The position numbers and the translations under genes were made by a program. Shown one piece after another: positions 19,519 through 53,476 of a DNA stretch of 64,000 nt. This DNA comes from a bacterium (GTDB taxonomy: Bacteria; Bacteroidota; Bacteroidia; Chitinophagales; JADIYW01). Positions within the stretch are counted from its first letter, which is position 1. Each line of letters opens with the position of its first letter. Below the pieces are notes generated by a model. It saw only the letters and a program-made list of their open reading frames with translations. It was not told the origin of the DNA and did no database searches. Where the stretch lies: contig JBBCIS010000003.1 in the NCBI GenBank assembly GCA_037189845.1, forward strand, positions 385,477 through 449,476. Direction: 5' to 3'.

Positions 19519-20322
19519 TTATACCGGACTATTCTTACCTTTCCTGTTGAAAGTATAGTAGACAGCCATTCCAGTGAAAAGCAGGCCTCCCACAATATTT
19601 CCGATAGTAACAATGGATTGGTTATACCACCAGTCTGCTATGGTGACATTGGCTCCGAAAAGGATGCCCGCCGGAATGACAAACATATTGACGACTGCAT
19701 GTTCAAAACCTAAAGCGAAAAAGATGAAAATAGGAATCCCTGCCGCTACTATTTTTCCTACAGTGGACTTTGATGTCATAGACATGACGACTCCCATGCA
19801 GACCATCCAGTTGCAAAGTATGGCTTTAATAAATGCTGAGACGGCTCCTGCGCTTCCATACTGCATATAGGCAATGGTTTTTTTTTCAGCAACTTTGACA
19901 ATCATTTGTTCTATCGGATCTCCGGTCTGAATTGCTCCCATCATCGATATAGCTGCCCAGTAAAATAATGCGTACAGCAAGCTACCGATGAGATTGCCCA
20001 GAAATACCCAGAACAGGTTGGAAAGCATGAGTCTGCCGGAAATCTGTTTCTCCATATATGCGATAGGAATTATTGCAAAGCTGCCAGTCACCAGCTCCAG
20101 CCCCAGCAGAACGATAATGACGAATCCTACAGGAAAAACAATGGCTCCTATCAGAGGCGTATTTGTCTGTGTAACTGCTGCGAACGCAAGTGTGACCGAT
20201 ATAGCAAGCAATGCTCCGGAAAGCATTCCCCTGATGATGAGGTCTTTGGTGGGTAATGCTGATTTTGTAAGGGCGGCACTGAGCATTGTGCCTGCAACTT
20301 CTTTGGGTGATACGTAATCCAT
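19519..20322 (-). CDS. formate/nitrite transporter family protein (likely nitrite transporter NirC-like)
   Basis: FNT-family membrane protein, 267 aa, last gene of a co-oriented nirB-nirD cluster. Confidence 0.8.
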   Translation of the reverse strand: MDYVSPKEVAGTMLSAALTKSALPTKDLIIRGMLSGALLAISVTLAFAAVTQTNTPLIGAIVFPVGFVIIVLLGLELVTGSFAIIPIAYMEKQISGRLMLSNLFWVFLGNLIGSLLYALFYWAAISMMGAIQTGDPIEQMIVKVAEKKTIAYMQYGSAGAVSAFIKAILCNWMVCMGVVMSMTSKSTVGKIVAAGIPIFIFFALGFEHAVVNMFVIPAGILFGANVTIADWWYNQSIVTIGNIVGGLLFTGMAVYYTFNRKGKNSPV

Positions 20323-20506
20323 AGTTTTTTTGTTTAAGGTTTAAGGTTTGATGTTTAAAGTTTTGCTGTCGCCCGGTGGCTGAGCAGTTCGACTACGTGG
20401 TTGTTGAGCCCAGTCGAAACACTTACTGACCACGGAGTTGGAGCCTGATTGAGTCCACGGTCCACAGACCGCCGTATTTGTCGTCTGTCATCCGTGGTCT
20501 GTTGAG

Positions 20507-20905
20507 TTAAAACTTGTAGCCTATACCTATTCCCGGATGCCACCGGCCACTGACAGCCGATGTTTTGGGATTATAGAATACAGGTAGTTGCAAAGCAAAA
20601 TGTTTATAAGAAAGCGTGAGTCCTGCTCCCAGAGACGGCATGACAAATGAATTGGATACTTCATTGTTGTCTTTTTTGAACCGCAGGGAAGGCAAGACTC
20701 CGGCTAAAAGTGTAAATGATTTCTTCTTCCACTTGATAGCGGGCCCGGTGAAATTGAGATAAGCGCCTTTATCTACATATCCGGCTATTATATATCCCTC
20801 CCAGATCGAGAATGAGATATTTTTTTCCTTTTTACTTTCTTCTTTGGTGGATTCAGCAACGACCAGCAAGGGGAGCAACATGAATAGAGTAATGATGATT
20901 TTCAT
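20507..20905 (-). CDS. small predicted outer-membrane beta-barrel protein of unknown function
   Basis: Signal peptide, alternating amphipathic strands, C-terminal GIGYKF (terminal aromatic). Embedded between nirD and the FNT gene. Confidence 0.5.
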   Translation of the reverse strand: MKIIITLFMLLPLLVVAESTKEESKKEKNISFSIWEGYIIAGYVDKGAYLNFTGPAIKWKKKSFTLLAGVLPSLRFKKDNNEVSNSFVMPSLGAGLTLSYKHFALQLPVFYNPKTSAVSGRWHPGIGIGYKF

Positions 20906-21289: not shown

Positions 21290-21478
21290 GGTTGTAGTTT
21301 AAAGTTCAATGTTTTTTTAGTCCACGGTCAACAGTCCACAGATCACCGTTTTGATGATTAGTTCACAGACCGCGGTTCATCCGCCTCGACAGATCGTTTT
21401 TGCTGTTATCGTTTGCGTTGTCTGTTTTCAGTCGTCCGTTGTCTAAAGTCTTTCATCTTTTCTCTTATGTCTTGAGCA

Positions 21479-25989: not shown

Positions 25990-28900
25990 TCAATTATCTC
26001 CACCTCTTTTTCCAAGCAGCTTCACCAGTTTCTGCATGTGCTCATTCAGCCCGGAGAATTGCATCAGTACCTGTGCAGTCTTGTCATCATCAGCGATACC
26101 GGAAAACTGGTTGTTTTTGCGGAAGGTTTCTGTGATGTGCAAATAGCGGGCCTGCTCTTCCGGAGTGGCGATATGCATCAGATGTTTCAGCTTTAAAAGA
26201 TTGGCTTCGGCATCGGAAGTGAGTGTCTGCGCATCTGCCTCATAAGATCCGATCACCAGCTGTATCAGCTCCTGCTCATTCATTAACGGGACGACTTTCG
26301 TGACCATTTTATTCATGTTGCGGTATGAACCCTGTAATTTGAACGCAGGTTCTGTACGGTAGGTGTCTTTCATTCCTGCGCTCTGAATGTATAGTTCGTT
26401 GACCTGAAGAATAATATTTCTGATGTACAGACAGTTTTTCAGAACAGCTATGCTGTCTTCGATTTCGGCAGCTGTATGGTTGGCTTCCAACTCCGGACTG
26501 TATTCTTCTTTGCGCTCGATATACTGTATGAGCTTGTACAGATCATTGATGTTTTTGTGGGCTATCGCCTGGAGATACCTGTTTTCGCTGATGGCATTTT
26601 CTATCAGGCTGAGGTCAAAATATTGCCTGCTCTCTCCTGCCACATCTCCCAGATTATATACATCCGAACGATTGGCCAGCATGTCCGGGATTTTGAAAAG
26701 ATTACCGCTTTCTGTATATGGATTACCCGCCATGACCACGCAGAATCTTTTGCCACGAAGGTCATAAGTTTTACTTTCTGATTCAAAGATGCCGTCTATC
26801 TTGCGCTGTCCGTCTGCCAGAGAGATAAACTGCTGTAAAAATTCAGGGCTGCAATGCTGGATATCATCTACATACAGCATGACATTGTCCGCCATCTCAA
26901 AGGAGAGGTTAATTTTTTCCAACTCTGCTTTTGCTCCTGAATTGGTAGCTTCTGACGGATCGATGCTGGTGATGCGGTGACCGATAGTAGGGCCGTTGAT
27001 TTTTACAAAATGTAGTCCCATCGTTGCTGCCAGATATTCCATCAGAGTGGTTTTACCATAACCCGGAGGAGAAATCAACAACAGCATACCCATTCTTGCT
27101 GTCCGCTTGTCATTGCCGATAGTACCCAGCTGCTTGGACAAATTGGCTCCAATCATAGGGAAATAGACTTCATTGATGAGCTTATTTCTCATGAATGAGC
27201 TGAGTACTTTGGGACGCATTTCCTGAATTTTTAACCGCTGCTCATATTTTTGGATGAGTCCGCGTTTGGTTTCCCTGAATGAGTCATACAACGGAACTGT
27301 TGTCTCATCGAAATGCTGTAAACGATTCAGAAAATCATGGTACTGAATATGATATCCCTGATCTGAGATCACCGGATGAGTACCCTTTAAGTCATGAATG
27401 GTCATGGCATCTGTACCGATGTGTTCCCGGTATGCATCAAATTCAAAAACCAGCAGACAGGCTGCTTCTTCTATATATTTGAGATTATAGGAATTTTCTT
27501 TTTGTGTAGTAACGAAGGCCTCTATCCAGTCCGAAATGGTATGGTAGCGTTCATAGAGGCTATACTGCTGATTGCGCGCATCTTCTTCAAAACGCTCCAT
27601 CTGATGGAGGTCATTCAGGTGCCTGATAAAATCATTTTTGATATGGATAGCCGGAATACTGGCGGTAAAAACCGGAGTATCCTCAAATTCAGCTATCAGA
27701 TATGATGCTATTGAATGAATGGTCCGCTGATGTAATTCGGGGTGAATTTTTTGTATCTCCTGTGTCAGTGCTTTGAAGGATTTCAATTCTTCAAATGGTG
27801 TCTGAAATAATTGATGAATCTTATGGGCTGATTGTATCCATTGGGATAATTTTTCCCTGGTTGCTTCTTCCAATTGTTTCCAGTACAATTGAGCCTGCAC
27901 CCTGATTTCTACAGAAAATCTCAGCACACCGAGTTCTTCATACATTTTCAGTAATGCTTCAAATATCATCAAGGCATCTGTATTGTGTACACCTTTTACA
28001 TATCCGCCTGCGTAATCTCTTTCTATTAAATTATCAATATAGGTCAATGCAGAAAATCCGTTATCCGTTTTGGTATAAGCTATAAAGGTGAGATAAGCCA
28101 GATATTCCGCCCGGTAAACGCCCGGATTTTCTGAACGGTAATCCTGATCCCAGACACTGATATATTGCTGAAAGATTTTCTGATCAATAGGCTGGTAAAA
28201 GTTGGTTCCCATCAGGTGATACATGAGCCTGTCCTGATGTTTGACGATGGTGAGCGATAATTCCTGCTTATTGACCGCAAACTTATATGTACCAAGTGCG
28301 ATAATATTTTGTCCGTCCACAAAAAGTTCGGCCTGATCATGCAAGACCCTCACTGCATTTTCCTGCGCCAGCTTGAGACTGTTAAGCAGGTTTTCAGCTT
28401 TCCCGACATCACCGAGCTGCTGAAGCTCCTGCGCAAGATTCCGGATTTTTTCTATCATGAGATCGCCGGCAAAAAAGCTGAAGATTTCTTCTGTTGAGCT
28501 AAAGCTACGGGCTTTGGTTTCCACACTTTTCAGGACACGAAGTCCTATTTGCTCAAGATTCCCGGTCCGTTTATTGATCTGTGCGATCAACATTTCTTTT
28601 TTACCATTGAAAGCTTTGACTACCTCATCCCGCTTATCAGCTATTTTCATTATAAACTCATCAAAGTCCGCAAACTTGCTTTCCAGCTCTTCGATGTGGA
28701 CACTGATTTTGGTGAAATAGTTGTCTGTTTTTTCGACAGTATCTGAAAGGTCCAGGAAATTGACAATGCTTTGTTCGAGCAAGGTCAGCTGTGCATGAAA
28801 CTCCCCGACTGCTTCACTGGACTTCAGGGTACTTATTTTCCTGTTCAATAAAGCTCTGACTTCATTCAATGTTGAAAAAAGCAAAGAGATATTCTCAATG

Positions 28901-30837
28901 ATTTTAGTCGTTTGAGTGGTATCTTCTATTTTAAGGCTGTTCAGTATGTCAATGAGCAATTCTAATTGTCCTGCTATGCTCAGACATTCCTTTTCAATGA
29001 CCTGTGCATCTATGACTTTACTGACAGCTTCGATAGCCTGACGTTGTGCTTCGATATTTTTCTCATAAGGCAGTAAAGCATTCTCCTGTAATAAAAAGTT
29101 GATGGTTTCCTGTGAAAGTTGTTCATTGAATGCTTTAACCTGCTCTGACAAAGCCTGAATTGCCTGCTCATCAATATATCTTACCTGTAATAATTCAATG
29201 ATACTGCCCTGCGCCAGGCGGACAGTATGTAGCTGTCTGACCAGCTCATCGACTGCGGTATAACGGGCATTCCTGATGGTTTGACTCAATTGTGCAATGC
29301 GTTCCTGCATGAGCTTTTCTTGTGCGGATGCGTACTGACGCTGTGCCTGTACTTTGGCAAATTCATCTATAGCTGTATTGGCTATCTCGCTGATGGCTTT
29401 CAGCGGTTCTGCAAGATTGAAAGTTTCTTCGTCAGCCAGCCAGAAATAGCTGTCTGTCATCGCACGGGACAATCTGGCTATATCTTCATACAATCCTTCA
29501 TAACTGTCTTCTTTCCTGAGCAGCTGTACTATCTCATATCCTTCAGACATGGCGTGTACGATATCTTTATTGCCGATTTTGTACAGGACATTGTTTCTCA
29601 TTTCCCGATTTTCCACCAGGATTGCGGTATATGGAGTCTGCCAGATTTGTACCTGATGATGCCTGATGGCTTCACGTTCTGATTTGAAATAAATCAGCTT
29701 TCCATCCTGAAAAATTGTAAATCCATTGCAGATGATGGGCGTATTGACCTGCTGCTGAATCACGTTGTAAGACATCAATACATAGGTATTGGAGGTCTTC
29801 TGATAATAAACATACAGATAGTCTTCTCCATTCGGAGCTATCATGGTACGCATGTATTCCAGCTCATCTATTCCGTTGTCGAAGAGCTTATATTCTCCGT
29901 TTTGCAGATAATAGCCGTTGGAAAAGATAATTCCCTGCTGATCCGGCAATAGAACTCCGCTGTACAACAGGCTCGGAATATTATGGACTTCTTTTGTCCT
30001 GATGTTATAAATATAGGCTCTGGACTCTTCCTGGTAGGGCTGTATTTTGATAGCAATCAGGTTGCCTAAATCCGCATAAAAATAGTTGGCATCATCCAGC
30101 TGCTGATCCTTGTTGCTGACTGGTTCTGAGTAAATTCCCAGTCCACTCTCCGTATTATCTTCAATTTTGAAGGTGATGTCTCCGTTGATCGCTTCGATAA
30201 ACACCTTGTCCAGGATAGATATATGCGGATGTACCCCCAATCGCCTGTCTTCCAGACTGGTCTTTTTGAAATCAAAGCTATACTGTGGTGCAGTTCTGAC
30301 CTCATGAATGCTTCTGTCATCTATGTATTGCAGGCGATTTCCATCTATATACCACTTAAAAGCTTTCCTGTCGGCTACATTTTTTGAGCTCTGGAAAATC
30401 ATGTACAGATAATTCTCCGTCTTGTAGAATTTGGAGAAAAAGGCTTCTCTGTAGTATTTATAGAGGTTTTTAAAATCTGCTTCAAACTGTGGATCTGCAA
30501 TCAAATCCAGTGTCGTAGGCTCAAATTGTATATCCTGAAAATGATAGATACTGAATACATCATCCAGTGAGATCTCTTCTCTCAATCCAAAGTGAACATT
30601 GTAAGCAAAAATGCAATGCTCGCCCAATGCTATTATACCTCTCGCTACTCCATTGTGCTCGGTAGTGATACGCTGATTGGCAATCAGTGCAAACTGTTCG
30701 GTATTGAAAATGGCTTTTCTTCCAACATTCAATGCTGCCAAGCGATCGCTCAGTATCTTGCTCTGCTCCTGTAAACGATTACGGATAATTTCGTAAGTAC
30801 CCGCTTCTAAAGACATCATTGGATTGGATTTTGGCAT
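25990..30837 (-). CDS. giant (1615 aa) multidomain protein with MoxR-type AAA+ ATPase core; function unknown
   Basis: Uninterrupted ORF. Walker A LLLISPPGYGKTT at ~27061-27090, Walker B MLYVDDIQ, and MoxR-like sensor-1/helix-2 region FCVVMAGNPYTESGNLFKIPDMLANRSDVY. ~450-aa beta-rich N-domain and ~600-aa Q/E/L-rich helical middle. Confidence 0.7.
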   Translation of the reverse strand: MPKSNPMMSLEAGTYEIIRNRLQEQSKILSDRLAALNVGRKAIFNTEQFALIANQRITTEHNGVARGIIALGEHCIFAYNVHFGLREEISLDDVFSIYHFQDIQFEPTTLDLIADPQFEADFKNLYKYYREAFFSKFYKTENYLYMIFQSSKNVADRKAFKWYIDGNRLQYIDDRSIHEVRTAPQYSFDFKKTSLEDRRLGVHPHISILDKVFIEAINGDITFKIEDNTESGLGIYSEPVSNKDQQLDDANYFYADLGNLIAIKIQPYQEESRAYIYNIRTKEVHNIPSLLYSGVLLPDQQGIIFSNGYYLQNGEYKLFDNGIDELEYMRTMIAPNGEDYLYVYYQKTSNTYVLMSYNVIQQQVNTPIICNGFTIFQDGKLIYFKSEREAIRHHQVQIWQTPYTAILVENREMRNNVLYKIGNKDIVHAMSEGYEIVQLLRKEDSYEGLYEDIARLSRAMTDSYFWLADEETFNLAEPLKAISEIANTAIDEFAKVQAQRQYASAQEKLMQERIAQLSQTIRNARYTAVDELVRQLHTVRLAQGSIIELLQVRYIDEQAIQALSEQVKAFNEQLSQETINFLLQENALLPYEKNIEAQRQAIEAVSKVIDAQVIEKECLSIAGQLELLIDILNSLKIEDTTQTTKIIENISLLFSTLNEVRALLNRKISTLKSSEAVGEFHAQLTLLEQSIVNFLDLSDTVEKTDNYFTKISVHIEELESKFADFDEFIMKIADKRDEVVKAFNGKKEMLIAQINKRTGNLEQIGLRVLKSVETKARSFSSTEEIFSFFAGDLMIEKIRNLAQELQQLGDVGKAENLLNSLKLAQENAVRVLHDQAELFVDGQNIIALGTYKFAVNKQELSLTIVKHQDRLMYHLMGTNFYQPIDQKIFQQYISVWDQDYRSENPGVYRAEYLAYLTFIAYTKTDNGFSALTYIDNLIERDYAGGYVKGVHNTDALMIFEALLKMYEELGVLRFSVEIRVQAQLYWKQLEEATREKLSQWIQSAHKIHQLFQTPFEELKSFKALTQEIQKIHPELHQRTIHSIASYLIAEFEDTPVFTASIPAIHIKNDFIRHLNDLHQMERFEEDARNQQYSLYERYHTISDWIEAFVTTQKENSYNLKYIEEAACLLVFEFDAYREHIGTDAMTIHDLKGTHPVISDQGYHIQYHDFLNRLQHFDETTVPLYDSFRETKRGLIQKYEQRLKIQEMRPKVLSSFMRNKLINEVYFPMIGANLSKQLGTIGNDKRTARMGMLLLISPPGYGKTTLMEYLAATMGLHFVKINGPTIGHRITSIDPSEATNSGAKAELEKINLSFEMADNVMLYVDDIQHCSPEFLQQFISLADGQRKIDGIFESESKTYDLRGKRFCVVMAGNPYTESGNLFKIPDMLANRSDVYNLGDVAGESRQYFDLSLIENAISENRYLQAIAHKNINDLYKLIQYIERKEEYSPELEANHTAAEIEDSIAVLKNCLYIRNIILQVNELYIQSAGMKDTYRTEPAFKLQGSYRNMNKMVTKVVPLMNEQELIQLVIGSYEADAQTLTSDAEANLLKLKHLMHIATPEEQARYLHITETFRKNNQFSGIADDDKTAQVLMQFSGLNEHMQKLVKLLGKRGGDN

Positions 30838-30890
30838 TGATTTGAGGTTAAAGACATGAGACGAGAGACAATAGACTTAAGAAGTTTAAG

Positions 30891-30950
30891 GTTTAAAGTC
30901 TAAGGTTTAAAGTTTGCTCACGCAACGATTGAAAACCTTAGACTTTAAAC
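30891..30950. promoter_or_regulatory. 18-bp perfect inverted repeat GTTTAAAGTCTAAGGTTT-N24-AAACCTTAGACTTTAAAC between the flotillin and giant-ATPase genes
   Basis: Arms at 30891-30908 and 30933-30950 are exact reverse complements. No U-tract follows on the coding (minus) strand. Adjacent direct repeats AAGGTTTAAAGT x2. Confidence 0.6.
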
Positions 30951-30962
30951 AACTTATCAGAT

Positions 30963-33038
30963 TTACGAAAGCTTTTTATTAGACAATCCGAGATTGCTGG
31001 CCATATTCAAAAGATTATTGATTAACGGCCGGTCAGAATCATCACTCTGCTGATGCATTTTGAGTAAGATGCTGGAAATCGTCAGATTCTTAATATCGTT
31101 GGTGCTGACATTGTATTTGTCAGCAAAATCTCTGATTTTATCCAGTAGATCTCCGTTGGAAGAGCCATCTCCAATCAATGCATTTTTGATATGCGTGGCA
31201 TTCTCACTTTCGTTGATTAATCTATCGAAACCTTTGGCGTTAGAAACCTGATCGACAATATTCCGGAAGAACATGGTCTCTCCACCTACGATATCTATGT
31301 TGGCTGATTTCAGTGCCTCGGAAAGGACATCTGCCTGAGCCACTGCAACATCTTTCTGGATATTGATCTGTGCAAGTGCAATATCTTTATCTTTCTGCAC
31401 AAGGATTTTGAACTCTTCGTGGTCTTTGCCAACGCCGTCCAGCTTCTTCATTGCCTCTGCTTTCTCTTCAATACCGGATGCTTCTGCCAACGCTTTCTCT
31501 TTTGTTCCTTCTGCTTCCGCAAATGCTTTTTGTTTCATCACTTCCGCTTCCATCAGACCTTCTTTGCGTTTCGCATCTGCCATTTTCTCTACTACATTCG
31601 CCTCGACGATACCCTGGCGCTCAGTTGCAGCTGCTTTTGCCATCATTACTTCTGCTTCAGATAAACCGATAGTCGCTTCCTCACGTGCCTGGGCTTCTGC
31701 AAGAATTTTCCTTGCTTCTGCTTGTTTTGTAGCTGCATCTTTACGAGCTTCTGCATCGATCAGCATTTCTTTGGCTTTTTCTTCCGCCGCCTTTTTGTCC
31801 GCTTCTGCCGCTTTCACGGTATAGATTAATTTTTCTTCTGCCTGACGGGAAGCTTCGGTGATACCGACTGTTTTCACTCTTTCCACCTCACGGAAAGCTT
31901 CAATATCTTTGATGTTCTGCTCTTCTTCGACTACGCCTTTTTCTAATTTGACGCGCTCTTTGATGACATCCTGGATGTTTTTGCGTTCGATCTCGACCGT
32001 TTTTTCTTTCTCTATCTGGGCGAGTGTGACAATTTTCTCTTTTTCTGTCTGCTCCAATAATTTGTCTTTCTCTACTCTTTCAGTCTCTACCGCATCTGTT
32101 CTCAGCTTATTTTTCTCTGCAATGATGATCTGACGGAGCTTATTTTCTTCCTGAATGGCTAATTGTTCTTCTGTACGGATTCTGACCGTTTCAGATTTTA
32201 GTCTTTCTTCTTCTCTGACTTTGAGAATTTCTGCTTCTTCCCTGGATTTAATATTGTCAATTTCTCTTTTTTGCTTCTCTTCTTTTTCAGCCATCTGACG
32301 TTCCAATTCCAGTATAGCTTCTCTGGCTTCTACATTTTGTTTTTTGATGACTTTCTCCTCTTCTCTGCGGATCAGATTGGATTTGATATTCTGAGCGGCA
32401 GTCAGTTCCGTGATCTTTTTGATACCTTCTGAATCAAGGATATTTTCTGCACTTAAAAATCTTAGTTCCGTCTGTTCTAAATAATCGATAGCACAATCAT
32501 CTAAAATATATCCATTGAGGTCAGTACCGATCACATCCAGAATCTCATCCCTGAACTCCCGACGTGCTTCATACAGCTCTATGAAATCGAATTTTTTACC
32601 CGCAGTTTTAAGTGCTTCAGAAAATTTGGCTTCAAAAACGTTATTCAGCGTATCTACATCACTGGCACGGTCGCAACCTATCACCTGCGCTACATTGATG
32701 ACGTCATCAACACTTTTGTTGACCCGTACAAAAAATGCAACTTTGATATCTGCCCGGATATTATCCTTACAAATCAAACCATCGTGTTCCATCCGGTCGA
32801 TTTGTAATTTTTTTACGGAAATATCCATTATTTCCATTTTATGCAAAATAGGAATCACGTACATACCACTGTTAAAAGCAACCTTGCTGCCTCCGACACC
32901 TGTCCTTACGATAGCCTTGCCTTGCGGAATTTTTTTGTAAAATGTCGCAAATGCAAATAGTACAACGACGATAATGAAGATCACTCCGCATATCAACAGG
33001 ATGAGTAATCCTCCCAAATTGTCAAATAATGTTCCCAT
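30963..33038 (-). CDS. flotillin-family SPFH (band 7) protein
   Basis: N-terminal TM segment; SPFH domain; ~350 aa of E/K/A/R-rich coiled coil; 691 aa. Architecture of YqiK/FloT-type flotillins. Confidence 0.85.
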   Translation of the reverse strand: MGTLFDNLGGLLILLICGVIFIIVVVLFAFATFYKKIPQGKAIVRTGVGGSKVAFNSGMYVIPILHKMEIMDISVKKLQIDRMEHDGLICKDNIRADIKVAFFVRVNKSVDDVINVAQVIGCDRASDVDTLNNVFEAKFSEALKTAGKKFDFIELYEARREFRDEILDVIGTDLNGYILDDCAIDYLEQTELRFLSAENILDSEGIKKITELTAAQNIKSNLIRREEEKVIKKQNVEAREAILELERQMAEKEEKQKREIDNIKSREEAEILKVREEERLKSETVRIRTEEQLAIQEENKLRQIIIAEKNKLRTDAVETERVEKDKLLEQTEKEKIVTLAQIEKEKTVEIERKNIQDVIKERVKLEKGVVEEEQNIKDIEAFREVERVKTVGITEASRQAEEKLIYTVKAAEADKKAAEEKAKEMLIDAEARKDAATKQAEARKILAEAQAREEATIGLSEAEVMMAKAAATERQGIVEANVVEKMADAKRKEGLMEAEVMKQKAFAEAEGTKEKALAEASGIEEKAEAMKKLDGVGKDHEEFKILVQKDKDIALAQINIQKDVAVAQADVLSEALKSANIDIVGGETMFFRNIVDQVSNAKGFDRLINESENATHIKNALIGDGSSNGDLLDKIRDFADKYNVSTNDIKNLTISSILLKMHQQSDDSDRPLINNLLNMASNLGLSNKKLS

Positions 33039-33188
33039 GAAAATTGATTTAGTTTTAAATGTTTAAGGTTTTTTTAGTTTAAAGCCGATGAGTTTCGACA
33101 GGTGGTTTCCGGATCATTTCGACTCCGCTCAATGACCTCTTCAACACTCTATAGTGTTAACAAATTCGGCAATCGTAAATTGTAATTT

Positions 33189-34585: not shown

Positions 34586-34984
34586 TTATCGTTTAGAAAA
34601 ATATATTATCTGCTCTCTGTATTCATAGAGTAGTAACCCTAATGAGTTCAGTGCAGCTTCCAGCTCGTTGAAATCCATATTCTCAATCTGCATGGTATAC
34701 CTGTACAAAACTTTATCACCCTCTTCGTTGATCACAAAGGCCCCATGCAGCATATCCCTGTTTTTCTGCAGCAATGCCTTGAACATTTCAAGATTATCTT
34801 CCTTGAATGAAAAGAGATAATACTCCATGATCAACAAGGGTGGCACTACGCCAATAATCAGATTCCTGATTCCGTCCTGCTCATTCTCAATTTTCATGAT
34901 TCCGGACAACTCATCTGCATAAGTCACTTTGTACTCTGCCTGGTGAATCAACTCCCTGATTTTATCCATGTATGATACTCTCAT
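34586..34984 (-). CDS. YbjN/DUF2170-like (type III secretion chaperone-fold) small protein, PspA-adjacent
   Basis: ~133 aa from Met MRVSYMDKIREL. Size, alpha/beta pattern and position next to pspA resemble E. coli yjfI-yjfJ and YbjN-family proteins. The ORF-track N-extension to 35074 is rejected. Confidence 0.45.
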   Translation of the reverse strand: MRVSYMDKIRELIHQAEYKVTYADELSGIMKIENEQDGIRNLIIGVVPPLLIMEYYLFSFKEDNLEMFKALLQKNRDMLHGAFVINEEGDKVLYRYTMQIENMDFNELEAALNSLGLLLYEYREQIIYFSKR

Positions 34985-35051
34985 AGGCAATTTATTTTTA
35001 GATTGAAAATATTGCTTACCTTTAAGCATAATAAAATTAGCAAAAAATATT

Positions 35052-35078
35052 TTAATTGCAAATATTTTTTGCAATTAA
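35052..35078. promoter_or_regulatory. perfect palindromic operator TTAATTGCAAA-N5-TTTGCAATTAA in the divergent promoter between the XRE regulator and the PspA cluster
   Basis: 11-bp arms are exact reverse complements. Additional half-site-like AATTAGCAAAA (35033) and AATTAGCACAT (35087, overlapping the XRE start codon). Confidence 0.7.
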
Positions 35079-35097: not shown

Positions 35098-35775
35098 ATG
35101 ACAAAGTTCGGTGTAAATATTAAGAAAATCAGGAAGACAAAAGGGCTAAGCCAACAGTCTCTTGCCGATATTTTCAATATTACCAGGGGGAACATCTCTT
35201 CTTATGAAGATAACCGCGCTGAGCCCAGACTAGAAACTATTATATCAATTGCTAATTATTTTGGCATTACAATTGAAAAATTATTAACAAAAGACCTCAC
35301 TATTAATGAGATCCTGCAGTTCAATTCAGATAAAATCATAGAAGATGAACAGAGATTGAGCAATCTGAAGCTGAAAGATGTTTATTTTATTAGCGATGAT
35401 ATTTTAGCAAAAGGCCTGCATCAGGATATCAGCTTTGAGGATTTTGACCAGTTTCCGCTTATTAAAATTCCGGACACCAGCACTTCATCTATTATCGCAT
35501 TGAGCTTCAATTCTAATATCCCGCATCATCAATATTTTGAGCAGTTTCCTTTAAATGATTTGTTGTTTTTCAGAAATATAGACCCTGCAAATATTCATCT
35601 TCTGGATCAGAAAATGGGGATGTCACTGAGTTCTCATAGCATTGTTTTAGGTCAATTTATTCAAGAACCTGATCAGGAAATTACTTTTTTTCTGAATCAG
35701 CAGTATCAGGAAAAAGTGGACTTGCAACAGACCAAGAGATACTGGAAGTTATTTGCCAGCTACAAGCATTTATAG
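35098..35775 (+). CDS. XRE (Cro/cI-type) HTH transcriptional regulator with uncharacterised C-terminal domain
   Basis: N-terminal IKKIRKTKGLSQQSLADIFNITRGNISSYEDNRAEPRLETIISIANYFGITIEKLL is a canonical XRE HTH; 225 aa. Confidence 0.8.
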   Translation: MTKFGVNIKKIRKTKGLSQQSLADIFNITRGNISSYEDNRAEPRLETIISIANYFGITIEKLLTKDLTINEILQFNSDKIIEDEQRLSNLKLKDVYFISDDILAKGLHQDISFEDFDQFPLIKIPDTSTSSIIALSFNSNIPHHQYFEQFPLNDLLFFRNIDPANIHLLDQKMGMSLSSHSIVLGQFIQEPDQEITFFLNQQYQEKVDLQQTKRYWKLFASYKHL

Positions 35776-50335: not shown

Positions 50336-50677
50336 TCCTTATAATTCTAAGGCGAATTTATACTTATTCAATCACTTTAATAGTCACCAAAATATTATTT
50401 AGTTGTCAAAACAAGTAGTATTGAGTATTCGAACTGCTGATGAAATTGATGTCTGGACGTAAGCCTTTTCCTGAATCGTCATGTTGAACTTGATTCAGCA
50501 GCTGTACCTGAATCAGTATCTCTTTCAATCTGACAAATTCCGTGTCAGGCACTGAATGACGAATCAAACGACAACTGGCGTAAGCAAACTTTAAATCCGT
50601 GACACACTTAGAATAATCTCAGTGCCCGACGGCAAGACTTCAAACTTTAAAATGGTGGACAGTGAACAGTTGAACAT

Positions 50678-53476
50678 TTAATTCATCACAAACTGATAAG
50701 GTGAAAATTTATAGGCATCCGGATTTGCATTCTGGACAAATGGGATATCCGGATTTAAAATTTCTTCCAATAGATTAGTGAGCTGTTCAATGAACATACT
50801 TTGTGTTTCTGCAGGAATTTGTAATCCATCATTGAGATATTGAATTCCTTTGGATAAATCTCTGATACTATAAAAACCAATGATGGCAGAAGATTCATTT
50901 AATAAAAACTGATAAAACAATCCCTGAAATGTCTGCGGTTTTGTAGTATGATTGAATCGTTCAAAAACTTTGGAAAGATCCCTCAGATCACCTGCGAGTT
51001 CTACTTTTCCCGTTTTGTAATCCAGTATCCTGACTCCGGAACTGATCTTATCTACACGGTCAATTTTCCCCTGAAAGGAAATTTCCTGACGATCTTTCAA
51101 TGTAACAGATCGTTGCCGCTCTCCTTCCAGCAACAAAATTTCAAATGGCTCTTCTTCCGCCATTCTGATATCCGTTTCAATGATTTTTTTCAACGATTGC
51201 AAAATGATATCATATGCCAAAAGATTTTGGCCTTTGAGCTGATTAAAAGACTGGTATTCTGTTTCAAAAGCTTCTTTCAAAGTAATTTCCAACAGAGGGA
51301 GCTTTGCTCTGATTTTGTCTGCGGTCACTTGCTGCTGTAAAAAATCCTGATACAGGATCTCTATTGTTTTATGTAAAACATTTCCAAAAGAGCCCGCATC
51401 CATGATTTCCTCCGTTTCCCTGGGTTCTTCTATTTCTGCTACGTATTTCAGGTAAAATTGTACAGGACATCTGAGGTACAGAACCAATGCACTCTGAGAA
51501 TAACTTCTGTTCCGGAGAATTTCTATATGTTCAGGTGTTTTCTTTATAATTATTCGCCCGGTACTTTCTTCAGAACTCTTCTCCTTGGTGTGATCTTTCA
51601 ACGGATATGACCAGCTGGTTCGGGTGATGATATTTTCCGGGGTGTTCAATTCCAGCATGATCTGTCCCAGAAATCTGCTTCTCTCAAAAGGCTGCTCACC
51701 CGGAACATTGTTATAAATCAGATGGCTTTCTTCCGATCTTTTGAGCAGTCTGTAAAAATGATAAGCATATATTCCATCAAAAGCTTTCAAAGTAGGTAAT
51801 CCGAAAGGCTTCCTAAGATTATAAGGAATATAGGAGTTACCTCTTCTCGATCTGGGTAAAATCTCTTCATTGGCACCCACTATAATCACTCTGTCAAAAT
51901 CCATCAATCTAGATTCAAGAAAGCCCATCACTTGAACAGGCATTTTCTGATCAGAGAGGAATGGAACTGCTATTGATTTAATATGTGAAAGCAACAGCTG
52001 ATATATTGCCTTAAAAGATACTTTTGATTCAAATGGCTCCAATATGACCTGCTTATCATAAATGGCCTGGATAAAATACGGGATAATGATTCCCAGCTGT
52101 TGGTTTTGCCCCTGGATATTTTCTTTTAGTTTTTCCAGTGACCGGATCCAGAATCTGCACAATTCTCTCAGGCTAGCAAAGCGCTCTCCCTCTCCGGAAA
52201 GTAACAGATCTATATGGCCGCTCAGATTTTTCTTGCTGAAGAAAAAAACAGATGAATCCAGAAATCTCTTTTTAAACTGTCTGACGTTGGCATCATCCAC
52301 CAGTATTCTGAAATAGGAATGCTTGAATAATCTGTTCAGCTCCGATTTATGTATCGTTTCACTGCTGTTGATCCGGTATAAGATCTCCAGCCAATCTGTC
52401 ACAGAAGACTCACCAACCGGAAAGCTCATAGTGATATTCGTCATATCCAGATCCTTCAGCTCATATAAAAATGATTCCAGTATATTTTCCTCACAAAGTA
52501 CAACTCCGGTTCTTTTCCCGTCATTGAGCGCAATATATTTTTTCAGAATGTCTGCAGCTACTTTGACCTGACCCTGATGAAGAGGAGCTCCGTGAAGGTG
52601 ATATTTCTTCCGGGTACTGAGTACGCTTCCATCTTTCCAGAAAGATTTGATTCCCGGGAAAAGAGTCTTATACACCCGTAAGAAATCTCCGGCCTCATGA
52701 TAATTATTGTCCATGAAGTAATCATCAGCATCCCAATACATCGCTACATCTGACAAATCAGCGAGCTTTTTAATCAGCAATACATCCAGATCCGCAAAAG
52801 CATTAAACCCTGCAAAATGAATGTGGCTATACGGGAAAACAACAGATTCTGCATTCTTTATTTCATGATAATAGGTACGGAATGCGAGTCCCTCATACGC
52901 CAGCATCTTATTTTTTAAAGCCAGCGCATATTCCTGGTAAATTTTCCCAACGACTTCCCATGTTTTAATAAATGATTGCTCATAAGGCTTATCGGCATGT
53001 ACTACTTTCCAGAAATGCCGCATGATTTCTTTCAGCTCTTCATCTATTTTGAAATGCTCATCAATTTCTTTGATGTCCTGAATAATGGTGAAAAGCTTCT
53101 TCGCATCTACATTGTATTTATCTATCTCATCAAAATCCGAGAGCATCATCCTGCCCCAGGGTAGAAATTCCTCAAAAGATATTTCGTCCGGCCAGTGCTT
53201 CTGATAAATTTCGTAAAGCTCCAGCAGCAGAATATCATTATCAGGAACAGCAAATCCACTCAGCCTGGTCCAGAATTCATTGATAGAAATGACCTCCGGC
53301 ATCAGAAAAGCCCGTTCAGGATATGATTCCATTAAATACTGCATCAATACGGTACATGCTCTGCGTGACGGCAAAACGACAACTGTAGAAATCATACTTT
53401 CCACATCAGTTTCACAGATCTTCTGAGCAGCCCATTCCAGGAACGGAACATCTTTTTCGTCTTGATTCAGCAACAT
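50678..53476 (-). CDS. PD-(D/E)XK nuclease superfamily protein (AddB/RecB-like, inactivated helicase-like N-region)
   Basis: C-terminal ...RIDRVDKISSGVRILDYKTGKVE matches the PD-(D/E)XK D...(D/E)xK core; 932 aa; no adjacent AddA/UvrD-like partner. Confidence 0.6.
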   Translation of the reverse strand: MLLNQDEKDVPFLEWAAQKICETDVESMISTVVVLPSRRACTVLMQYLMESYPERAFLMPEVISINEFWTRLSGFAVPDNDILLLELYEIYQKHWPDEISFEEFLPWGRMMLSDFDEIDKYNVDAKKLFTIIQDIKEIDEHFKIDEELKEIMRHFWKVVHADKPYEQSFIKTWEVVGKIYQEYALALKNKMLAYEGLAFRTYYHEIKNAESVVFPYSHIHFAGFNAFADLDVLLIKKLADLSDVAMYWDADDYFMDNNYHEAGDFLRVYKTLFPGIKSFWKDGSVLSTRKKYHLHGAPLHQGQVKVAADILKKYIALNDGKRTGVVLCEENILESFLYELKDLDMTNITMSFPVGESSVTDWLEILYRINSSETIHKSELNRLFKHSYFRILVDDANVRQFKKRFLDSSVFFFSKKNLSGHIDLLLSGEGERFASLRELCRFWIRSLEKLKENIQGQNQQLGIIIPYFIQAIYDKQVILEPFESKVSFKAIYQLLLSHIKSIAVPFLSDQKMPVQVMGFLESRLMDFDRVIIVGANEEILPRSRRGNSYIPYNLRKPFGLPTLKAFDGIYAYHFYRLLKRSEESHLIYNNVPGEQPFERSRFLGQIMLELNTPENIITRTSWSYPLKDHTKEKSSEESTGRIIIKKTPEHIEILRNRSYSQSALVLYLRCPVQFYLKYVAEIEEPRETEEIMDAGSFGNVLHKTIEILYQDFLQQQVTADKIRAKLPLLEITLKEAFETEYQSFNQLKGQNLLAYDIILQSLKKIIETDIRMAEEEPFEILLLEGERQRSVTLKDRQEISFQGKIDRVDKISSGVRILDYKTGKVELAGDLRDLSKVFERFNHTTKPQTFQGLFYQFLLNESSAIIGFYSIRDLSKGIQYLNDGLQIPAETQSMFIEQLTNLLEEILNPDIPFVQNANPDAYKFSPYQFVMN

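Follow-up and report, generated by a model that had tools for sequence, protein, structure and literature searches.

A predicted hairpin of opposed heptamer arrays between the flotillin and giant ATPase genes of a Bacteroidota PspA-flotillin operon

The flotillin-ATPase junction

In the window, by which we mean the whole 64-kb stretch of DNA that was analysed, a divergently encoded HTH_3 regulator gene is followed by genes for a CesT/Tir-like protein, PspA, a YqiJ-like protein, flotillin and a DUF3686/DUF7902/AAA ATPase. This cluster matches the operon class of Ravi et al. 2024 (PMC11237479), and the PspA-flotillin-ATPase operon is an envelope-stress operon (PMC11237479). The nearest genomes are those of Chitinophagaceae, with 80-83% identity over the ATPase N-terminus. 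The original prediction had placed an inverted repeat between a flotillin gene and a giant ATPase gene, in a 125-bp gap inside an apparently co-transcribed cluster, and this setting holds: 125 nt separate the minus-strand ORFs 30963..33038 and 25990..30837, and the repeat lies inside the conserved CesT-PspA-YqiJ-flotillin-ATPase cluster. The ATPase is identified by DUF3686, DUF7902 and AAA, and the flotillin by the source names of its close homologues, with Pfam-A giving no match at E<=0.001. The ATPase start codon at 30837 is backed by the conservation of MPKSNPMM in relatives; the gene caller chose 30816. The features considered in the following are these:

30963..33038, minus strand: upstream gene, a 691-aa flotillin/YqiK-type protein, whose own leader has YTTAAAC units at 33061-33083
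30958..30986, minus strand: weak candidate promoter of the Bacteroidota type, TTG-N18-TAAATCTG, overlapping the flotillin stop codon (one mismatch, not significant)
30951..30955, minus strand: imperfect stem extension AAGUU, paired with AACUU (30882-30886) in the MFE structure
30933..30950, minus strand: GUUUAAAGUCUAAGGUUU, the arm that is 5' on the mRNA; a heptamer array of the G type, beginning 12 nt past the flotillin stop codon UAA
30909..30932, minus strand: loop of 24 nt (UCAAUCGUUGCGUGAGCAAACUU) in which UUGC/GCAA form a small inner stem; other members of the class described below do not share its sequence
30891..30908, minus strand: AAACCUUAGACUUUAAAC, the arm that is 3' on the mRNA; it belongs to a G-poor heptamer array of the C type
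30882..30915, minus strand: the full heptamer array found by TRF (period 7, 4.9 copies), which contains the 3' arm and runs on 3' as CUUAAAC UU
25990..30837, minus strand: downstream gene, a 1615-aa DUF3686/DUF7902/AAA ATPase
20332..20363, minus strand: lone heptamer array (…CTTAAACCTTAAAC AAAAAAACT ATG) directly upstream of gene 19519..20322(-), a leader-type use

A repeat search of the window found the 18-nt arms at 30891-30908 and 30933-30950 to be 100% complementary (18/18) with a spacer of 24 nt, so that the perfect 18-bp repeat is exact, in arms, spacing and sequences, as first described. The tandem 7-nt array 30882-30915 describes it better than the GTTTAAAG/TAAGGTTT units named earlier; that the arms are heptamer arrays of a widespread class, described below, was not recognised in the original prediction. 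This array ends about 46 nt upstream of the ATPase ATG. On the mRNA, the flotillin UAA is followed by 12 nt, the 5' arm, the loop, the 3' arm and CUUAAACUUCUUAAG…, and the ATPase AUG lies 53 nt after the stem. The stem is AT-rich, with 5/18 G/C pairs, and in the MFE structure it is extended to about 23 bp in total with a 4-nt bulge. The tail after the stem reads CUUAAACUUCUUAAGUC, and there is indeed no U-tract on the coding strand. The hairpin as a whole follows the formula (GUUUAAR/GUCUAAG)n, loop, (YUUAAAC/CUUAGAC)n. Each heptamer carries TAA on both strands, which together with the 7-nt period results in stop codons in all three frames. It is confirmed that the repeat is more than a chance occurrence: the arm is present four times in the window with up to 3 mismatches, where 0.07 occurrences are expected, and the coding-strand spacer folds at -29.6 kcal/mol (z = -5.68), with 0/200 shuffles as good. 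The opposite strand folds at -33.3 kcal/mol (z = -5.09).

The CesT-like gene (34586..35074) and the divergent HTH_3 gene (35098..35775) have a different palindrome, TTAATTGCAAA-TATTT-TTTGCAATTAA, between them, at 35045-35075. This divergent promoter region contains a 15-nt tandem repeat detected by TRF and no heptamers. The palindrome probably serves the XRE-type regulator of this operon as an operator and is unrelated to the heptamer hairpin.

Orthologous junctions in Bacteroidota

The spacers between flotillin and ATPase genes were taken from 80 Bacteroidota genomes and the closest metagenomic relatives, and none of these orthologous spacers shares the sequence of the window hairpin. The closest relatives sampled (L082/L083, 87% flotillin identity) possess an unstructured 57-nt spacer that lacks the hairpin, and L084 (86%) and L085 (85% flotillin identity) have strong hairpins of unrelated sequence that are located 21 and 9 nt after the stop codon, respectively. 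In six species the spacer measures 8-22 nt, which implies that both genes are co-transcribed.

Structure at this junction was tested with dinucleotide shuffles, using 54 junction spacers of 40-300 nt and, from the same loci, 75 other same-strand spacers. The mean z of the junction spacers was -3.07, with 35/54 below -2 and 29/54 below -3, whereas the control spacers had a mean z of -0.56, with 14/75 below -2 and 4/75 below -3 (Mann-Whitney p = 1.7e-10). The junction hairpins start at a median of 10 nt after the stop codon and end at a median of 39 nt before the ATG, and a U-rich tail follows in 4/44. On this comparison of sequences, strong structure at the junction is recurrent and presumably selected, with a fast turnover of the sequence that forms it, and the heptamer hairpin is the version of this recurrent junction structure in the window genome. 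The hairpin part of 17 Cytophagales spacers could not be aligned by MAFFT and gave no consensus structure; one compensatory pair was found in a subset of seven Cytophagales spacers.

In many Chitinophagaceae and Cytophagales a motif TGGCA[CG]-N4-6-TTT(T)A[CG] is kept after the junction hairpin. It lies about 30-60 nt before the ATPase ATG in L005, L007, L009, L010 and L017, and 42-56 nt before the ATG in L029, L033, L034, L039, L047, L050 and L066. The motif is similar to the -24/-12 promoters of sigma-54, its -12 element being degenerate, and Cytophagales have a conserved leader block, TTCATCAGCGTTTATCTTTTT, behind it. This suggests that the ATPase gene has a promoter of its own, possibly under stress control, in the lineages that have the motif, which is absent from the window.

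Heptamer arrays elsewhere in the window

The unit of the junction array recurs in a second period-7 array detected by TRF, the one at 20332-20363. As seen on the coding strand, YTTAAAC units are located just upstream of five starts in the window, namely 1718(+), 20322(-), 21289(-), 30837(-) and 33038(-), and about 5/40 window genes have such an array. The lone arrays lie 7-25 nt upstream of ATGs, and in sum the 64-kb window holds one heptamer hairpin and four to five lone arrays. A comparison of the array-bearing leaders of the window revealed no homology beyond the heptamers. G-poor leaders made of A, C and T, often with tandem units of about 7 nt, are the norm upstream of flotillin orthologues across Bacteroidota. 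As such leaders are common, the 3' arm of the junction hairpin is leader-type low-complexity sequence, and what is unusual is the inverted copy with G residues that closely follows the flotillin stop codon.

A wider class of heptamer hairpins

The exact 18-mer arm gave at least 120 matches in metagenome contigs, a count that is not comparable with chance as the size of the collection is not given, so that the case rests on genomic context and on controls. After removal of telomere-like TTTAGGG arrays, 88 occurrences with enough context were available among the matches listed. An inverted partner was accepted with up to 5/18 mismatches within 130 nt downstream, and it was present in 51/88 (about 58%) among the matches listed, as compared to 2/88 and 5/88 for composition-matched controls. 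The polarity is strict, since all these 51/88 have the order G-array, loop, C-array, whereas the reverse order, which would pair equally well, was found in 3/88, again among the matches listed. The arms are separated by spacers of 5 to 110 nt whose sequences are unrelated, and the mismatches between the two arms have a median of 2-4 of 18. A single other hairpin among the matches listed has both arms exact together with the 24-nt spacing (L148 3039-3097), and it is located between same-strand genes that we take, from their N- and C-terminal sequences, to be rnc-like (RNase III) and gpsA-like.

The gene context could be classified for 42 of these hairpins among the matches listed, and in tallies that are approximate owing to crude ORF calling, the flanking genes are tandem in about 29 cases, convergent in about 11 and divergent in 2; gene calls show the arrangement to be tandem in the high-GC contigs L189 and L204. 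About 40/42 of the classifiable hairpins, among the matches listed, thereby adjoin the 3' end of a gene. The stop codon is mostly located 15 nt or less from the 5' arm or falls within the first heptamer (…GTT TAA), and a clear U-tract was present in 1/27 of the class hairpins between tandem genes. Lone arrays in the metagenomes are G-oriented right after stop codons (17 cases) or C-oriented 7-12 nt before starts (11 cases), and other orientations occur too.

The contigs that bear the class span 31 to 68% GC, and the class is present in Bacteroidota as well as in uncultured Burkholderiales of 67% GC. In the latter it is found at an intra-operon junction from PrpD to an acyl-CoA dehydrogenase, in the layout of the class, with the stop codon inside the first heptamer and the C-array ending 15-20 nt before the ATG. 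In a relative with a 92% identical PrpD this layout is kept and built from another stop-rich heptamer, as (TGAGTAA/TGGGTAA)n, loop, (TTACTCA)n; the spacer is 1 nt long in relatives at 88%, and those at 84-86% have ordinary 48-nt spacers. At this PrpD junction, the TTACTCA-type hairpin of L209 2902-2989, (TGAGTAA/TGGGTAA)n, loop, (TTACTCA/TCACTCA)n, with -38 kcal/mol, stands in place of the GTYTAAR hairpin of close relatives, and units of the TTACTCA type are also found as leader arrays in L030 and L144.

More than one copy in a single contig or metagenome was observed for L168 (two) and for JAESFG01 (three). In the JAESFG01 contigs the heptamer hairpin sits at the core of a larger palindromic element, about 200 nt long and present in several copies, which was located at L096 2380-2600, L119 4620-4850, L146 8260-8480 and L200 5490-5720. 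This element has outer arms …CCGGTTGCGTCGCACACTT… / …AAGTGTGCGACGCAACCGG… and a partly conserved loop, and it looks BIME/MITE-like and dispersed. The class is widespread but sparse, as a search of 1.07 Mb of Bacteroidota loci with a strict regex picked out no hairpin other than that of the window.

A search of plasmids gave one match, a lone (GTTTAAA)5 array that ends a chemoreceptor gene of Pseudoalteromonas. In this strain, Pseudoalteromonas sp. HL-AS2 (NZ_CP133572.1; L206 1495-1545), the methyl-accepting chemotaxis gene ends inside the array, which supplies the C-terminal residues (…K K F K V *) and the stop codon and has no inverted partner. Carriage by phages was considered and rejected, since the two viral matches were both due to chance and contained no arrays. 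Rfam had no match at gathering score, neither for the window, which gave sub-threshold matches to generic hairpins (miRNA precursors) only, nor for 16 class loci, and no description of opposed heptamer arrays that form hairpins was found in the literature. The class is apparently undescribed.

Comparison with known elements

REP/BIME elements and intercistronic stabiliser hairpins, such as the REP between malE and malF of E. coli, protect the upstream mRNA and bring about differential expression within an operon. The heptamer hairpins are like them in being stable palindromes without a U-tract that lie just past a stop codon, between co-transcribed or convergent genes, and in being scattered over numerous loci, with gains and losses between relatives; as with REP/BIME, the palindromes are extragenic, located at gene 3' ends and rare between divergent genes. 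They differ in that their arms are low-complexity arrays of stop-rich heptamers with a variable number of units, whereas REP has a fixed consensus of 20-40 nt with a 5' GTAG. The arm in the window begins with GTTT instead, no RAYT transposase is encoded among the neighbouring genes, and the heptamers of the hairpin class recur across phyla.

Intergenic direct repeats of heptamers are known in cyanobacteria as STRR. An origin of the window arrays from cyanobacteria (HIP1/STRR) was rejected, as GCGATCGC occurs once in the window and is not enriched, and as the relatives are Chitinophagaceae. Direct repeats of the heptamer TAACTGA occur in Beggiatoaceae, Cyanobacteria and some Bacteroidetes, and in BOGUAY 169 direct sets contrast with one indirect repeat (PMC4679880). 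The arrays described here share with these the stop-containing tandem 7-nt units, the mostly intergenic location, often few nucleotides upstream of starts, and the sporadic occurrence in distant phyla including Bacteroidetes. What distinguishes them from TAACTGA-type direct arrays is the unit sequence, the opposition of two arrays to form a hairpin and the strict polarity by the stop codon. The inverted pairing is therefore additional to what defines heptamer direct repeats, that is, tandem intergenic 7-nt units near starts, which are found here as well.

Intrinsic terminators likewise place a stem-loop directly downstream of a stop codon, but they are recognized by about 5 or more U in the 8 nt 3' of the stem and by a G+C-rich stem with a loop of 3-8 nt at the end of a transcription unit. 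The junction hairpin has neither, as no U-tract follows and an AT-rich stem (5/18 G/C pairs) with a 24-nt loop lies inside an operon, and a terminator scan of the window did not call the junction site. The operon ends of the window do have textbook terminators of hairpin and U-tract, for example after 11740(-), 16498(+), 18055(+), 39503(+), 55198(+) and 63184(-). With canonical terminators present in the window, the junction hairpin is an element of a different kind, which bears out the original prediction that it is unlikely to be a simple intrinsic terminator.

Other known elements agree less well. The flanks extend the palindrome imperfectly and without direct repeats, and the loops of the class are unrelated in sequence and length, unlike in a MITE. 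The fixed spacing of half-sites in or beside a promoter that characterizes an operator was not found, and there is neither a complete promoter in the 24-nt segment nor a neighbouring recombinase gene, as would be expected for an inverton.

Possible functions of the junction hairpin

We tentatively favour, at somewhat under an even chance, the view that the repeat is a REP-like intercistronic RNA hairpin, which as a 3'-end barrier or a leaky attenuator would uncouple the level of the ATPase from that of flotillin. The hairpin would form in the CesT-PspA-YqiJ-flotillin-ATPase transcript, 12 nt after the flotillin stop codon and 53 nt before the ATPase start, and as it lacks a U-tract, transcription is probably not terminated efficiently. 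It might then block 3'-to-5' exonucleases, or it might cause pausing, leaky termination or processing by RNase III, for which about 23 bp are available. The segment from pspA to flotillin would in consequence be more abundant or longer-lived than the segment of the giant ATPase. We infer that RNA rather than DNA is the active form, and likewise which enzyme or step is affected. An element that acts through RNA at the 3' end or at the level of elongation is favoured by the stop-proximal site (10-12 nt), the distance of about 40-50 nt to the next start, the missing U-tract and the fact that divergent regions have almost no members of the class. A stability or processing hairpin that uncouples the ATPase from flotillin was one of the roles initially put forward, and it is the one that the comparative data favour, given the recurrent stop-proximal hairpins at the junction and the location of the class at gene 3' ends. 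It is further supported by the perfect, stable stem, by the 8-22 nt spacers in six relatives, by the different look of the canonical terminators in the window and by the like architecture of the analogous PrpD junction inside an operon of the Burkholderiales. Against this reading stand the lack of strand asymmetry detailed below, the single compensatory pair in the Cytophagales spacers, the absence of the hairpin from the closest relatives sampled (L082/L083) and the strict polarity of the class (51/88 versus 3/88, among the matches listed), which pure stem stability does not explain. The local role of the heptamer hairpin is probably an ordinary one, the tuning of expression within an operon, as far as its sequence and context can tell.

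It is conceivable, albeit doubtful, that the palindrome is a neutral or selfish by-product without a locus-specific function, in which slippage-grown arrays were turned into a palindrome by inverted duplication or template switch, or which is a dispersed element of the REP/MITE type. Several gene boundaries, in the window as well as in metagenomes, do carry lone arrays. Close relatives gain, lose and replace the hairpin, at this junction as at that of the Burkholderiales, where a different heptamer builds the same structure, and in JAESFG01 it forms the core of the multi-copy element. Moreover, the arm mismatches of the class (median 2-4 of 18) are about those of independent draws from a pool of heptamers. 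This explanation also accords with the lack of strand asymmetry. Selection on the sense RNA should result in G.U pairs that favour the sense over the antisense fold, and for the 27 class hairpins between tandem genes there was no such preference (ddG -0.96, p = 0.53; G.U 62 vs 63). At the orthologous junctions an unbiased test gave p = 0.055, and after collapsing to 36 clusters ddG was -0.02 (p = 0.78); an apparent asymmetry at these junctions (p = 0.0004) was discarded, as the hairpins had been chosen on the sense strand and the test was thereby biased. What speaks against a by-product is that an inverted partner accompanies about 58% of the arrays, among the matches listed, as opposed to 2-6% of the controls, which is far too many for independent arrays, as only about 5/40 window genes have an array. 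The orthologous junction is also enriched for structure whatever its sequence, which points to selection for a hairpin there, and neither a target-site duplication nor a conserved internal sequence was seen.

A role in translational coupling or insulation is unlikely, though it would account for the all-frame stop codons and the polarity. Bacteroidota lack Shine-Dalgarno-led initiation. The terminating ribosome would melt the stem and free the G-poor 3' array as a standby site or leader for the Shine-Dalgarno-independent initiation of the ATPase, so that translation of the ATPase would depend on that of flotillin, and the 5' arm would provide stop codons in all frames beside the flotillin stop codon. 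Consistent with this, TAA is present in all three frames of both strands, the stem follows the stop codon by 12 nt here, many class members have the stop codon within their first heptamer, and the strict polarity always puts the G-poor array 3', towards the next start. Heptamer-like G-poor leaders are the norm in Bacteroidota. The 3' array comes to within about 15-20 nt of the ATG in the Burkholderiales, and a translational function has been proposed for heptamer repeats that closely precede start codons (PMC4679880). The junction hairpin, however, ends 53 nt before the ATG (median 39 nt in orthologues) and thus outside the footprint of initiation, and coupling is impossible for the quarter or so of the class members whose neighbouring genes are convergent.

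Still less probable, in our opinion, is an efficient or factor-assisted terminator of the flotillin transcript, with the ATPase expressed from a promoter of its own; as a variant, the hairpin could be a 5'-terminal stabilising stem-loop of the second transcript. The position after the stop codon would fit, as would the promoter-like block that follows the junction hairpin in many relatives (the TGGCA[CG]-N5-TTTAC type in 9/80 loci, and the Cytophagales leader block) and the weak TTG-N18 candidate listed above, which would start transcription about 3 nt before the stem. The stem is AT-rich and has no U-tract, the window is devoid of the TGGCA motif, and its sole promoter candidate is not significant, so that internal promoter control, also among the roles first suggested, finds little to build on. 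In addition, the 8-22 nt spacers of some relatives show that the gene pair can be co-transcribed.

A site that acts at the DNA level, be it one of recombination or inversion or an operator to which the divergent XRE/HTH_3 regulator or some other factor binds, is very improbable: the perfect dyad and the HTH_3 regulator encoded in the cluster would suit it, but the class spacers vary from 5 to 110 nt, unrelated genes flank the class in at least two phyla, divergent, promoter-bearing regions are nearly devoid of it, the regulator's own promoter region has the different palindrome TTAATTGCAAA-N5-TTTGCAATTAA without heptamers, the 24-nt segment is too short for a promoter, and no recombinase gene is among the neighbours. 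The operator proposed at the outset is therefore disfavoured.

A broader idea, which we regard as speculative and doubtful, is that arrays of stop-rich heptamers, with (GTTTAAR)n behind stop codons and (YTTAAAC)n ahead of starts, together with families such as TGAGTAA/TTACTCA, constitute an undescribed cross-phylum class of polar gene-boundary elements. Where such arrays face each other they form hairpins of fixed polarity, they might be read in 7-nt steps by a conserved single-strand-binding factor (S1/Csp-type OB fold) or be spread by a dedicated enzyme, and they might act between the genes of an operon as modules that stop translation in any frame and insulate or couple.

Significance

If the REP-like RNA hairpin is the correct reading, the hairpin would fix the stoichiometry of a very large AAA+ ATPase relative to a membrane-scaffold module (PspA, flotillin). 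To our knowledge, little is known about how expression is set within Bacteroidota operons, and a recognisable class of polar hairpins at operon junctions and gene 3' ends would be a concrete handle for Term-seq and reporter work. In high-GC Betaproteobacteria the class is compositionally foreign, and a heptamer hairpin with stop codons in all frames would make a compact natural insulator part. What merits follow-up is the class itself, with its polarity, its spread across phyla and the different heptamers that build one structure.

Further repeats near the arrays

A second copy of TTTAAAGTTTGCTYACGC (50578-50595) is best regarded as what is left of a heptamer array behind another stop codon. 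The region 50560-50660(-) contains a degenerate G-type heptamer array, TTTTAAAGTTTGAAGTC, 27 nt past the stop codon of gene 50678..53476(-), and then a long imperfect inverted repeat, GTCGGGCACTGA … TCAGTGCCTGAC, within which the arm/loop boundary of the junction hairpin recurs almost unchanged (TTTAAAGTTTGCTTACGC, 1 mismatch). The window also has a second repeat family, GTCCACGGTCCACAGACCGCCGT-like with 65-88% identity, at 20453-20478, 20538-20563, 21327-21352 and 21361-21376; these repeats are intergenic and adjoin the lone heptamer arrays at 20332 and 21297. Sequences of the TCGAAATGA / GTCGAAAC type, similar to this family, are found upstream of the flotillin gene (about 33084-33150). Finally, the long flotillin-ATPase junctions of L001 and L002 are filled by REP-like GTCATTTCGA…CGGAG elements.
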